Below are positions 1-3,585 of a stretch of DNA of 64,000 bases, in pieces. The stretch is taken from positions 43,753 to 107,752 of the forward strand of contig CAMJPC010000006.1 of assembly GCA_946407705.1 (NCBI GenBank). The letters are read 5' to 3'. This DNA is from an uncultured Clostridia bacterium. Lineage in GTDB: Bacteria > Bacillota > Clostridia > Saccharofermentanales > Saccharofermentanaceae. Under the pieces are notes generated by a model. That model made no database searches, was not told where the DNA came from, and saw only the letters and a program-made list of their open reading frames with translations. The position numbers and the translations under genes were made by a program. The stretch's first letter is position 1, and each line of letters begins with the position of its first letter.

Positions 1-319
1 GGAAATCATCCAAAGTCTTGCGCCACTCTTCTGCCGTCAGCATTCCCTCATCGCCGTAGATACTGCCGTAGCAGTTAGTAGCCATAGGCTTTGATTCGTC
101 AGCCTGAGTCTTATAGAGGATAGGCTGAACCATCTGAGCAGCCTTCTGTTCAAGCGTCAGCGTTCCAACGATCTCTTCCGGAGTCATGGTCGCGTACCAC
201 TGGTACTTGTACTGATATTTTCCCTTGGGGAACTTTTTCGTTCCATTAGGATTTGCTGTGCATGCAGTTGTCGTAAAAAGCATTACTGCAAGCATAATTT
301 TGGCAATAGTTTTCTTCAT
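1..319 (-). CDS. Glycoside hydrolase family 3 (beta-glucosidase-like) lipoprotein, N-terminal part, truncated by window edge
   Basis: Not in the ORF track; hand translation gives MKKTIAKIMLAVMLFTTTAC (signal peptide and lipobox) ... MTPEEIVGTLTLEQKAAQMVQP, matching the typical GH3 N-terminal MTLEEKxGQMxQ motif. AAGGGGG RBS lies upstream. Confidence 0.7.
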   Translation of the reverse strand, partial: MKKTIAKIMLAVMLFTTTACTANPNGTKKFPKGKYQYKYQWYATMTPEEIVGTLTLEQKAAQMVQPILYKTQADESKPMATNCYGSIYGDEGMLTAEEWRKTLDDF

Positions 320-358
320 AAAGGCAGAGTCCCCCTTAGCAAATTGATTTTTCGGGTA

Positions 359-2131
359 TTATTTCCAGGAATTTACGGCTTTTATCGTTTCTTCAGCCGA
401 TTGTTTAGCATAGGCGTCATCAAACGTCCTGCTGTAACTGTTACCATCCAAAATGATCAGTTTTCCGTTTCGCACGGTATTTACTGCTTTTTCTGCAGGT
501 CGTGAGCTTGGAAGAAGCGTGCCCCATATAACCGCGACAGGCACTTTGCAATCCTTCAGGAAATCGTAGGTATAAACTGAGAATTTCGGTTCTTCAGAGA
601 ATGTATATTCCCCGATATCAGGCTCAACCAGGATTACTCCTTTGAGTTCATCCTGTCTGTCAGTTCCTGTATAAGAAGCAACGAATCCTCCGGCCTGATG
701 TCCCCACAGATACAGCATTTCGAGATCTACATCAGGAACATATTTCAATTCATCCATTACGGCATAAAGATCAAGTACATATTCAAATGTAAGATTGCCG
801 TGCTGAATCGGCGAATAATACTCAGTTCCGGATGTATTAGTGTCGAAAAGAACAGCCGCGTAACCATTTTCGTTGAAATAGTTTGCCATCTTCTCATATC
901 CGGCATTCTTCTCATCGCTCTGACCGTCAAGAGCCTTGCATATAACGATAGTCTTGAAAGGACCTTCACCCTTGGGGAGCATTATCTTTCCTTCGATCGG
1001 GAATCCGTTGCGGTTGAAGATTATCTGCTTCTCGGTATCGGTTATCGTAATTATTTCAGGCTTCTTAACCGTGTAATTAAACGGTGCGTCTCTCTGAACA
1101 GAGACATCACCTGTAAGCAGTTCGTCTGCCTTTGAATTAAGACCAAGAGTTGCTGCTACAAACAGGAGCGTAGCTACTATCATTACGCTGGTAAACTTCG
1201 TTCCCTTCTTGTAGCTGATGATATTTTTAACCCTGTGTGTGACTTCGGCTTTGCAGAACCTGCCGTTGCTGAATCCGAGTGGTATTACGAGGTACTTTTT
1301 ATTATTGCTTCTTTTAGCGTAATTAACGATCGAGATCGCATATGCCTGCTTGAGTTCGGTAGTCATTTTAGAGACTGTCGACTCATCGCAGCTCATCTCG
1401 AGATCCTGCTCATAAAGCGCATAAGAAAGCCATACAAAAGGATTGAACCAATGGATCGCAACGATAACTGTGCCAAGAATCTTACCGAGCCAGTCACCAT
1501 GTCTTATATGAGTTCTCTCATGCATGAGGATATATTCTCTCTCAGAATTGTCGAGCACTTCGGGAAGATATATCTTCGGAACGAAAAGACCGAATACGAA
1601 CGGTGAGCTTACTTTCTCTGATTCATATACATTCTTATCGATCTTTACTGCATCCTTTAGCTTAATCTTAAGCAGGACAAAACGCACAGCGGTATACAAA
1701 GCAACAACCGCAAAGCCAATAAACCATAAGGTTGCAAGAATCACTTTAACATTCGGAATTGCTCTTACTTTTTCATTATGAGCTTCAGTTACCATTGCTT
1801 CGCGGCGTTCTTCAGAAGCTTCAAGAGCAGCTATTTCATTATTTGTTTTAATTAACGCGGCATCAGCTTTTTCAACACCGTTATCTTCAAACACCTTTGC
1901 TTCCTGGATCTGCGTGGTAATGGCTTCGGTATGTAAAGGAATGTAATTAAATACGCTGATTACGGATTGTATATTTATCGGGAGAAGGAGCCTTACGGCT
2001 ACTACAGCCCAGAGGATCATGATGAATCTCTTTGACCTTTTGCGCAGGAGAAATCTGAACAGGATAGTAGCAAGGACTACTACGCTGCCCATGATAGACA
2101 TCTCAAGCACTTTAAGGAAAAGATCCGTCAC
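359..2131 (-). CDS. BlaR1/MecR1-type M56 metalloprotease sensor-transducer with a C-terminal degenerate alpha/beta-hydrolase domain
   Basis: N-terminal TM segments, SSPFVFGLFVPKIYLP, zinc motif HERTH, HWFNP and EMSCDE are all M56 features. After a TM helix comes an esterase-like domain (GKIMLPKGEGPF, YLWGHQAGG). Start overlaps the upstream BlaI-family stop. Confidence 0.9.
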   Translation of the reverse strand: MTDLFLKVLEMSIMGSVVVLATILFRFLLRKRSKRFIMILWAVVAVRLLLPINIQSVISVFNYIPLHTEAITTQIQEAKVFEDNGVEKADAALIKTNNEIAALEASEERREAMVTEAHNEKVRAIPNVKVILATLWFIGFAVVALYTAVRFVLLKIKLKDAVKIDKNVYESEKVSSPFVFGLFVPKIYLPEVLDNSEREYILMHERTHIRHGDWLGKILGTVIVAIHWFNPFVWLSYALYEQDLEMSCDESTVSKMTTELKQAYAISIVNYAKRSNNKKYLVIPLGFSNGRFCKAEVTHRVKNIISYKKGTKFTSVMIVATLLFVAATLGLNSKADELLTGDVSVQRDAPFNYTVKKPEIITITDTEKQIIFNRNGFPIEGKIMLPKGEGPFKTIVICKALDGQSDEKNAGYEKMANYFNENGYAAVLFDTNTSGTEYYSPIQHGNLTFEYVLDLYAVMDELKYVPDVDLEMLYLWGHQAGGFVASYTGTDRQDELKGVILVEPDIGEYTFSEEPKFSVYTYDFLKDCKVPVAVIWGTLLPSSRPAEKAVNTVRNGKLIILDGNSYSRTFDDAYAKQSAEETIKAVNSWK

Positions 2132-2511
2132 TTCTTATCGTCCTCCGTATGCGCCTTGATGAGCTTGATCAATGCTTCAGCATCCTCATCACTCAACGAT
2201 TTCTTGTTGCCGAGGAATGACGCGACGAACATAGGAAGAGAACCGGAAAAGCTCTCCTCGACTATCTGATTACTCTCTGAAATGAGAACATCCTCTTTAG
2301 GGATAAGCACACTGACTATCGTATCTTCGTTCTTAACAAAGCCCTTGGCTATCAGTTTTCTAAGAATGGTATATGTGGTCGATTTATTCCAATCGTTTAT
2401 CTCATTAGCCAGTTTAACAAGCTTACCGGATTCAACAGGAGCTTCTTTCCATATGATCTCCATAAGCTTCTTTTCTGCTTCAAACAACGTCAACTCTTGC
2501 ATTAATATCAC
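2128..2511 (-). CDS. BlaI/MecI/CopY family repressor
   Basis: LFEAEKKLMEIIW...WNKSTTYTILRKLIAKGFV...FSGSLPMFVASF...LSDEDAEAL; directly upstream of the M56 gene. Confidence 0.92.
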   Translation of the reverse strand: MILMQELTLFEAEKKLMEIIWKEAPVESGKLVKLANEINDWNKSTTYTILRKLIAKGFVKNEDTIVSVLIPKEDVLISESNQIVEESFSGSLPMFVASFLGNKKSLSDEDAEALIKLIKAHTEDDKK

Positions 2512-2523
2512 CTCAACAAAACG

Positions 2524-2576
2524 GTTTATCAGAATAAACCTATGGTTAGTTTATCTCGATAAACCGCTTATGTCAA
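2524..2576 (-). promoter_or_regulatory. Sigma-A promoter (TTGACA-17-TAAACT) with two GTTTAT-N4-ATAAAC palindromic operators
   Basis: -35 at 2571-2576 and -10 at 2548-2553 on the minus strand. Palindromes at 2524-2539 (GTTTATcagaATAAAC) and 2549-2564 (GTTTATctcgATAAAC). Confidence 0.8.
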
Positions 2577-2589
2577 TATGATTTTCAGC

Positions 2590-3381
2590 TTAATTGATCG
2601 CAGGATTATAGCAGATTACGCTTTTGTCATGCGGGCTGTACTTCTTCCCTTCAACAAGCTTGAACTCATGCTGCTTGGCAACGCCACCGAACCATTCATA
2701 GGGCTTGTCATCAGATGTCTTTCCTTCACTAATCTCAATTGCACCCTGTCGCAGGCATCTGATGAGCGAAATATCATCGAAATCCCTTGCGTGACCATGA
2801 AGAATGAAGTCAGCCTTTTCTTCTAGGAAAATGATCCTGTCCAAAGCTTTAACGTATTCAGCAAGAGGCGGACAACCATCAAGCATCATCCAAAGATGGT
2901 GGTTGATCGAGTCTCCTGTAAACAGGATCCTGTCCTCCTTAAGGAGCAGAACTATTCCACCCTGCGTATGTCCGGGGAGCTCATAAACCTCAAGAGTCTT
3001 ACCGCCCAGATCAATGACATCTCCTTCCTTGATCAGCTTGAACGGAGGCATTGAAAAGCCATACGTCTCACAAGCCTTAACAAAATCCGGGTGCTTAACA
3101 AATGACTCAGCCATCTCAAGATCCTTAGGATGGATATAAGCCTCATCAAAATACACGTTACCGAAAATGTGATCAGGATGACCATGTGTATTGATTACAA
3201 CGATCGGTTTATCAGTGAACTTTCTGATGAAACTCTTGATATCAGTGAAACCGTTCATTGTATCGATCACGGCAACCTTTTCCTCTCCTTCCACCACAAA
3301 ACCAGTGGCGAGATGTCCCTCATCCAAAAGATAGAGATAAGGCTTAAGCTGCTTCGGGAAAAGCTCCAGTTTCTCTTCCAT
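2590..3381 (-). CDS. MBL-fold metallo-hydrolase
   Basis: THGHPDH motif, PGHTQG and FTGD. Start moved to the ATG at 3381, behind a GGGAGGA RBS. Confidence 0.88.
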   Translation of the reverse strand: MEEKLELFPKQLKPYLYLLDEGHLATGFVVEGEEKVAVIDTMNGFTDIKSFIRKFTDKPIVVINTHGHPDHIFGNVYFDEAYIHPKDLEMAESFVKHPDFVKACETYGFSMPPFKLIKEGDVIDLGGKTLEVYELPGHTQGGIVLLLKEDRILFTGDSINHHLWMMLDGCPPLAEYVKALDRIIFLEEKADFILHGHARDFDDISLIRCLRQGAIEISEGKTSDDKPYEWFGGVAKQHEFKLVEGKKYSPHDKSVICYNPAIN

Positions 3382-3472
3382 ATATAGATCCTCCCTTAAA
3401 CAATACAAAGCACGATAATTATATCAATAACCGGTAATGATATGGGGACAATTCAGTACAAGCTAAAAGAAA

Positions 3473-3509: not shown

Positions 3510-3585
3510 TGGTGGAGACGAAGAGGATCGAACTCTCGACCTTACGGATGCGAACCGTACGCTCTCCCAGCTGAGCTACGCCCCC
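3510..3585 (-). tRNA. tRNA-Ala (anticodon CGC)
   Basis: GGGGGCGTAGCTCAGCTGGGAGAGCGTACGGTTCGCATCCGTAAGGTCGAGAGTTCGATCCTCTTCGTCTCCACCA: cloverleaf, GTTCGA T-loop, encoded CCA. Confidence 0.96.

Follow-up and report, generated by a model that had tools for sequence, protein, structure and literature searches.

BlaI/BlaR1 and MecI/MecR1 control beta-lactam resistance genes through protease-triggered cleavage of a repressor. The locus described here raises the question whether a switch of this kind can be wired to a glycosidase and, if so, which signal it might read. The locus occupies positions 1-2576 of a 64,000-nucleotide (nt) stretch of DNA from an uncultured Clostridia bacterium, called the window throughout (C6:43753-107752, contig C6 being one of the 31 contigs of a 2.67-Mb assembly). 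The assembly originates from gut metagenomes of sheep and cattle, and its closest named relatives are Saccharofermentans and 'Clostridiales bacterium' metagenome-assembled genomes. An earlier note on this DNA had described one promoter with twin operators, blaI- and blaR-like genes overlapping by 4 nt and a GH3 lipoprotein gene 39 nt downstream, with no hairpin in the spacer. This layout was confirmed in every detail. The coordinates 1-2576 given there are right, although of the GH3 gene they include no more than its first 106 codons. The features, all of them on the minus strand, are as follows.

2548..2576, minus strand: sigma-70-type promoter, TTGACA (2576-2571), 17 nt, TAAACT (2553-2548)
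2548..2565, minus strand: operator 1, 18-bp palindrome GGTTTATCGAGATAAACT, its right half being the -10 box
2523..2540, minus strand: operator 2, 18-bp palindrome GGTTTATTCTGATAAACC, downstream of the -10 box and ahead of the ribosome-binding site
2128..2502, minus strand: blaI-like gene, 124 amino acids (aa) from ATG 2502 (the open reading frame caller starts at GTG 2511)
359..2131, minus strand: blaR-like gene, 590 aa, M56 plus Hydrolase_4/FrsA-like
362..1129, minus strand: sensor domain of the blaR-like gene, cinnamoyl/feruloyl-esterase-like fold with the triad replaced and the lid shortened
320..358, minus strand: blaR-GH3 spacer, 39 nt, ribosome-binding site AAGGGGGA, no hairpin
1..319, minus strand: start of the GH3 lipoprotein gene (5'-terminal 106 codons), which runs off the window; full gene C6:41627-44071

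It is probable that these genes form a self-repressed three-gene operon (blaI, blaR-like gene, GH3 gene) of the non-canonical BlaIR type, and our confidence is a little higher still that the GH3 gene is wired to the BlaIR module. The wiring, which the earlier note had proposed, is borne out by synteny at 10 loci, a conserved spacer and ribosome-binding site, the lack of a terminator or second operator before the GH3 gene, and RNA contigs that span the junction.

The synteny search that the note had recommended, for BlaI, M56-hydrolase and GH3 in related genomes, revealed a conserved neighbourhood. Orthologous loci were collected from contigs whose M56 protein is 82, 77, 64, 57 and 57% identical, together with the single clear orthologue that 40 related genomes yielded and another from a wider scan of genome contigs (five matches, two of them useful). 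In 7/7 of these loci BlaI, M56/hydrolase and GH3 (807-822 aa) follow each other in the same order on one strand. A reverse search starting from GH3 added two more sequence types on three contigs, each preceded by BlaI and M56/hydrolase. The module BlaI-M56/hydrolase-(PF00144)-GH3 thus recurs at 10 more loci, the most divergent of which has 55% BlaR identity; GH3 is found in 11/11 loci and PF00144 in 3/11. Every flank that offers enough sequence for a comparison is different: there are a two-component system, a cupin regulator, MurJ and C39-ABC exporters in relatives, and a metallo-beta-lactamase (MBL)-fold gene and an Orn/DAP decarboxylase here. The module thus moves as a unit. The upstream MBL-fold gene and the downstream decarboxylase were rejected as parts of it, since neither recurs in the 10 related loci.

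The junctions within the module point to a single transcriptional unit. The GTG start of blaR lies inside the GTGA that ends blaI, giving the 4-nt overlap. The scan of the spacer strand found no terminator-like or promoter-like site, and no second operator was found between blaR and GH3. Among this locus and three others in which GH3 comes directly after blaR, with no PF00144 (S12) gene in between, there is hardly any difference in the 39-nt spacer or its ribosome-binding site. RNA evidence came from short Logan contigs matching this strain in four rumen metatranscriptome runs. Two of them run, with 0 mismatches, from before the blaR stop codon through the spacer and past the start of GH3 (window 178-388, X24; 253-439, X26), and further ones lie in blaI, in blaR and at several places in GH3. 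Depth was not used to gauge expression, since the contigs are too sparse for anything beyond presence. The 4-nt overlap, the conserved spacer, the lack of a terminator or promoter and the junction-spanning RNA together support co-transcription of GH3 and fit a single blaI-blaR-GH3 transcript.

Alternatively, GH3 could be transcribed, free of BlaI control, from a separate promoter within the 3' end of blaR. This could be argued from the crudeness of the consensus scans and from the chance that the junction contigs are DNA carry-over. It is an unlikely arrangement: those same scans, crude as they are, gave no promoter-like site on the GH3 strand in the 690 nt that precede the gene, a promoter would not fit into the 39-nt spacer, and the blaR-GH3 adjacency is strictly conserved in divergent genomes.

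Some observations speak against a tight coupling of GH3 to the switch and have to be set against the above. The RNA contigs are sparse and strandless and come from libraries that may contain DNA, so that they are supportive and not proof. In the sub-clade of about 57% identity the blaR-GH3 spacer is 122 nt long (L053:8804-8925, L036:11250-11374), and at L053 inspection by eye showed an AT-rich hairpin with a T-run after it (AAAGATC...GATCTTTGGTTTT), which the terminator scan did not call. This hairpin may be a partial terminator or an attenuator, and read-through may be partial in that sub-clade. Moreover, two GH3 genes with the same C-terminal tail (see below), a paralogue on contig C3 and a distant one elsewhere, have no adjoining BlaIR.

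Promoter, operators and the predicted regulon

The blaI-like product matches PF03965 (winged-helix Penicillinase_R) at residues 11-119 with E = 9.6e-20. Against the NCBIfam equivalogs for BlaI, MecI and CopY it scores 38-40 bits, below their cut-offs of 122-250. ATG 2502 is the likelier start than GTG 2511 because it is preceded by a GAGGTGA ribosome-binding site and because all orthologues are 124 aa long. The promoter, with 10/12 consensus matches, ranks top of the four promoter-like sites in the first 3.6 kb. Promoter and both palindromes keep their position and spacing in 9/9 orthologous and sister loci inspected. We infer that BlaI represses its own promoter through the two conserved palindromes.

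In the 2.67-Mb genome the strict motif GTTTAT-N4-ATAAAC is limited to two copies, both at this blaI promoter. When up to two mismatches were allowed, the sole other convincing operator pair was that of a paralogous blaI on contig C23; a pair on C4, non-palindromic and with two mismatches, is probably fortuitous. Neither the strict nor the two-mismatch search of the whole genome placed a site close to the paralogous GH3 or S12 genes. A wider BlaI regulon was rejected on these searches, which gave no further convincing site beyond the C23 paralogue's own. The strict motif being absent elsewhere, the predicted regulon would therefore be the operon itself, with GH3 as its only non-regulatory member.

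The C23 paralogue is a blaI/blaR pair (genome C23:12033-13950, L005:8033-9951) whose BlaI is 78% identical to the one described here and whose M56 protein ends in an NlpC/P60 domain. Its promoter has the same architecture with half-sites GTTTAA in place of GTTTAT. This difference between the half-sites implies that the C23 and C6 systems would act as insulated parallel circuits.

It may be added that the MBL-fold hydrolase gene next to the blaI promoter (window 2590-3408, minus strand) encodes no signal peptide and stops 13 nt short of the blaI -35 box, and there is no terminator in the gap. One RNA contig (2565-2823) extends from it into the blaI promoter. The adjacency is not kept in relatives. 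Further upstream lies a tRNA-Ala(CGC) gene (window 3510-3585, minus strand) with a terminator-like hairpin immediately 3' of it (3500-3473); it has the peak RNA depth of the region.

The GH3 enzyme and its occasional partner

The full GH3 protein has 814 aa, begins with the lipoprotein signal MKKTIAKIMLAVMLFTTTAC, ending ...LFTTTAC, and combines PF00933 and PF01915 in an ExoI-type core with a PsbP-like tail of about 180 aa. The best matches are the Saccharopolyspora beta-glucosidase 5m6g (285 bits), ExoP and barley ExoI; NagZ/YbbD reaches 97 bits. Alignment to 5m6g and ExoI places the motif KHFFGDG, the nucleophile in MSDS and the acid/base in GEDAYAEW, and the Asp-His dyad of NagZ (KH(F/I)PGHG...D(S/T)H) is missing. 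By these marks the protein is of the ExoI/beta-glucosidase type and not a NagZ. With barley ExoI, Pseudoalteromonas ExoP and 5m6g it shares the two-domain GH3 core, KHF-GDG, the SD nucleophile and GE..YAE; it differs from them in being a lipoprotein, in having SDS for SDW and in the extra C-terminal tail, which it shares with PF00144 lipoproteins.

The PF00144 lipoprotein gene (561-572 aa) stands between blaR and GH3 in 3/10 related loci. Its SxxK, YxN and H-x-G motifs are intact, and it resembles DD-carboxypeptidases, D-peptidases and family VIII esterases, with FmtA among its PDB matches. The earlier statement that the switch serves a glycosidase rather than a beta-lactamase therefore stands only in part: GH3 is the only cargo here, but a PF00144 gene lies between blaR and GH3 in these three relatives and three such genes exist elsewhere in this genome. 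A role in muropeptide rescue, in which PF00144 and GH3 would correspond to AmiE and NagZ of B. subtilis, was rejected on account of KHFFGDG and of the far better match to beta-glucosidase/ExoI than to YbbD.

The last 180 residues or so are homologous between the GH3 and PF00144 proteins (34-36% identity, E = 1e-24 to 1e-30). This tail is a previously undescribed domain with no match in Pfam. Its model (predicted local distance difference test score, pLDDT, 89.6) is a PsbP/DcrB/LpqN-like sandwich at a modest TM-score of about 0.5. A carbohydrate-binding module was rejected for these reasons, the fold not being like one. In a wider protein search the tail was seen only on GH3 and PF00144 enzymes, and the genome holds five copies.

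C6:41630-42196: tail of the GH3 described here (residues ~626-814)
C3:42150-42722: tail of a second GH3
C1:345691-346257: tail of a PF00144 protein
C1:347371-347931: tail of a PF00144 protein
C2:279411-279980: tail of a PF00144 protein

Each of the three PF00144-with-tail genes stands in a row with genes for an OmpR-type response regulator and a histidine kinase, which suggests a second, two-component control route for these enzymes.

C1:345680-351215 (L061:13680-19215): row of PF00144-with-tail and two-component genes
C2:277063-281070 (L063:4063-8070): row of PF00144-with-tail and two-component genes

An Rce1-like (CPBP) intramembrane protease gene adjoins a GH3-with-tail gene in two unrelated loci.

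L051:13065-14009: Rce1-like gene beside a GH3-with-tail gene
genome C3:39531-41636 (L062:3531-5636): Rce1-like gene beside a GH3-with-tail gene

The PF00144 gene opens the way to an explanation in which it is the ancestral cargo, the system answers cell-wall antibiotics and GH3 is functionally unconnected to the switch. BlaIR systems are classically linked to beta-lactamases, and PF00144 does come directly after blaR in the three relatives. We regard this as very unlikely. The constant member of the module is GH3 (11/11), not PF00144 (3/11), and the spacer and ribosome-binding site in front of GH3 are conserved. The homologous tail common to both enzymes argues for a joint function, and the sensor fold, described next, is not penicillin-binding and offers no serine for acylation.

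The sensor domain and the signal it may read

The blaR-like protein contains an M56 domain (PF05569, residues 7-279, E = 2e-44) with the HExxH motif HERTH at 204-208, as in a cytoplasmic M56 zinc protease. By hydropathy, transmembrane-like segments lie at about 5-27, 36-58, 128-152 and 314-331. The layout follows the order of BlaR1, namely three N-terminal transmembrane segments, M56, a fourth transmembrane segment and an extracellular C-terminal domain at about 335-590. The match to the NCBIfam BlaR1 model ends at model position 321/585 and scores far under the cut-off. In place of a penicillin-binding (transpeptidase/class D-like) sensor with an acylatable serine, the C-terminus is an alpha/beta-hydrolase (Hydrolase_4/FrsA-like at residues 337-507).

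A sequence search of residues 330-590 against the PDB put ferulic-acid and cinnamoyl esterases at the top. A profile of 12 sensor domains matched LJ0536 over its full length with E = 5.6e-15. Foldseek, run with the AlphaFold (AF2) model of the sensor (pLDDT 82.6), returned 7z2u, 3pf8 and 2wtm as top matches at a TM-score of about 0.7. The fold neighbours are the L. buchneri ferulic acid esterase, the LJ0536 cinnamoyl esterase, a Thermoanaerobacter lipase, a chlorogenate esterase and Butyrivibrio Est1E. The sensor is therefore alike in sequence, profile and fold to LJ0536 (3pf8), the L. buchneri feruloyl esterase (7z2u) and Est1E (2wtm), and differs from them by the lost triad, the lid and the fusion to M56. 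The nucleophile Ser106 of LJ0536 (GHSQGG) aligns to Gln (GHQAGG), as it does in all members of the GH3-linked clade; Asp197 (GTDD) has no counterpart (Leu or gap), and His225 (GADH) aligns to Tyr (GNSY). The two marks of a feruloyl esterase, a Ser-Asp-His triad and an inserted lid forming a phenolic pocket, are both lacking. As all three residues of the triad are replaced, the domain is a pseudo-enzyme that could at most bind its ligand without hydrolysing it, and acylation of the BlaR1 type is not possible. About 29 residues of the lid insertion with which LJ0536 grips the phenolic ring are also missing, and this tells against reading a ligand from the resemblance, which says little about it.

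A free-standing paralogue of the sensor in the same genome (474 aa, 37% identity) has GHSFGG, THD and GADH intact and is likely an active relative of the dead sensor, judging from these motifs. It lies at genome C1:337323-338747 (L061:5324-6748) and adjoins a sodium:solute symporter gene. The system is rare, with only some 40 clusters in a collection of 5.8 billion proteins, all of them from the guts of herbivores. In the nearest BlaR paralogues the sensor domain is of the NlpC/P60 type. Sister clades of the module couple the same type of sensor to other genes.

Sister clade at ~48% BlaR identity (clade B), 2 loci: Acyl_transf_3 membrane acyltransferase after blaR
Sister clade at 30-43% BlaR identity, 5 loci, two of them in the same genus: pair of CUT1-type (UgpAE/MalFG-like) ABC permeases

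An Acyl_transf_3 gene is also nearby in two other loci, and the permease-linked sensors keep the nucleophile Ser and have Asn for His. One sensor type is thus coupled to three kinds of extracytoplasmic or membrane output: a glycosidase, sugar ABC permeases and an acyltransferase. The contig of the acyltransferase-linked module (L069, contig of P0033; L067) also has MobA/MobL relaxase and DDE transposase genes, so that this version, at least, may be carried by a mobile element.

The earlier note had proposed a plant-cell-wall or ester ligand. An esterase-like sensor and an ExoI/beta-glucosidase-like GH3 are in favour of this proposal; the loss of the triad and of about 29 lid residues is against it, and the S12 and acyltransferase partners fit a role in the envelope about equally well. 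In the form of nutrient sensing, a plant hydroxycinnamate ester, a phenolic glycoside or an esterified oligosaccharide would be sensed and the surface beta-glucosidase induced for harvest. This is possible, though we would give it clearly less than an even chance. The closeness of the sensor to cinnamoyl, feruloyl and chlorogenic-acid esterases, including Est1E of the rumen, agrees with it, as do the ExoI/beta-glucosidase/xylosidase-like character of the GH3, the tie of a sister clade to a CUT1-type sugar permease pair in five loci and the sheep and cattle gut as source, a rumen habitat. On the other hand, apart from the altered lid and triad, the module is without other carbohydrate-use genes (binding protein, ATPase, more glycoside hydrolases), three loci have the S12 DD-peptidase/beta-lactamase-like co-cargo, and another sister clade is tied to the acyltransferase.

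The co-cargo and the acyltransferase lead to a second possibility, to which we give the same tentative weight. Here the dead esterase would keep watch on a polymer in the bacterium's own wall that bears esters or is glucosylated, or on damage to it, and the outputs would remodel that polymer, in the manner of CenIR of Clostridioides difficile. Precedents in the family are the beta-lactams and the control of Cwp6 and Ldt1 by CenIR. The intact DD-peptidase/esterase motifs of the co-cargo with FmtA among its matches, the acyltransferase directly after blaR in clade B and nearby in two other loci, and the NlpC/P60 sensors of the nearest paralogues point in the same direction. So do the S12-with-tail genes beside OmpR-type two-component systems, the tail itself, whose PsbP/DcrB/LpqN-like fold is one of envelope lipoproteins, and the distant GH3-with-tail gene, which lies near MBOAT and DHHW/ALGX genes. 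Against a wall polymer as the signal, the GH3 is clearly not NagZ-like (YbbD 97 vs beta-glucosidase 285 bits), the permease link better matches uptake, and we know of no wall-polymer substrate with terminal beta-glucose in this organism.

Relation to known BlaIR systems and significance

The locus resembles BlaI/BlaR1 of S. aureus and Bacillus licheniformis and MecI/MecR1 in its PF03965 repressor, in an M56 HExxH protease with the same order of transmembrane segments, in the overlap of blaI with the blaR that follows, in palindromes at the promoter (predicted autoregulation) and in an extracellular C-terminal sensor. It differs from BlaR1 and MecR1 in having a pseudo-esterase where these have a class-D-like penicillin-binding domain, with no acylatable serine, and in having a GH3 glycosidase as cargo and no beta-lactamase or PBP2a target. 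The operator half-site is GTTTAT here and TACA/TGTA in BlaI and MecI. Two canonical hallmarks of BlaR1/MecR1, the penicillin-binding sensor and the beta-lactamase/PBP2a target, are thus missing, and the locus fits the non-canonical BlaIR class, having an M56 protein without a transpeptidase domain encoded directly after a PF03965 gene.

Such proteins are the rule in the family: a 2026 study that listed 254 architectures found a transpeptidase (penicillin-binding) domain in only about 6% of M56 proteins (PMC13492132). An alpha/beta-hydrolase sensor is not among the nine common M56 architectures of that study, and our literature search found no paper describing such a sensor or a glycosidase output of BlaIR. 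CenIR, Mycobacterium BlaIR and Pseudomonas PvmSR likewise lack a penicillin-binding domain and have targets other than beta-lactamases (PMC13492132). CenIR controls envelope genes, and its inducer was not found by its authors (PMC13492132). The C-terminus of CenR is short and mostly disordered, whereas the one described here is folded and recognisably derived from an enzyme; about 12 dispersed genes make up the regulon of CenIR, whereas the predicted regulon here is the operon itself. In C. thermocellum BlaI_0696 and BlaI_1845 attach to paired inverted repeats with a GTCTAT/GACTAT-type half-site (PMC8457756). The present system is like them in its paired inverted repeats, which would give four-protomer sites, and in a small self-contained predicted regulon (PMC8457756). 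The C. thermocellum operons comprise BlaR1-like and hypothetical proteins, and a pseudo-esterase sensor or a glycosidase cargo is not described there (PMC8457756).

From the observed gene order, operators, synteny, dead triad, GH3 subtype and RNA across the junction the following circuit may be proposed, in which the repression by BlaI, the proteolytic activation, the non-covalent binding and the nature of the ligand are the conjectural steps. BlaI dimers on the two palindromes, one at the -10 box and one just downstream, would hold the operon nearly shut. A ligand other than a beta-lactam would be bound non-covalently by the extracellular pseudo-esterase, upon which the M56 protease would become active, BlaI would be cleaved and the operon de-repressed; this proteolytic mechanism is expected from family membership. 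De-repression would then supply more sensor and more of the surface-anchored ExoI/beta-glucosidase-type GH3 lipoprotein.

A broader idea may be put forward, of which we are doubtful ourselves. An enzyme-derived pseudo-esterase could be serving as the ligand receptor of a BlaR-type protease. The locus would then show what class of signal is received (a glycoside or glycopolymer bearing an ester, bound uncleaved) as well as what the direct output is (a GH3 on the surface, accompanied by S12 or not, sharing the PsbP-like tail), which would be a first for a non-canonical BlaIR, the sensor having been re-plugged onto three outputs. If this is true, BlaIR modules would be general plug-in sensors for carbohydrate and envelope chemistry in rumen Clostridia.

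The locus illustrates that BlaI/BlaR-type switches can control something besides antibiotic resistance, and such loci in rumen metagenomes should not be annotated as beta-lactam resistance determinants. With a folded sensor of identifiable enzyme ancestry, a one-operon regulon and an assayable output enzyme it is a tractable case, and it could reveal how an M56 protease is activated without covalent acylation.

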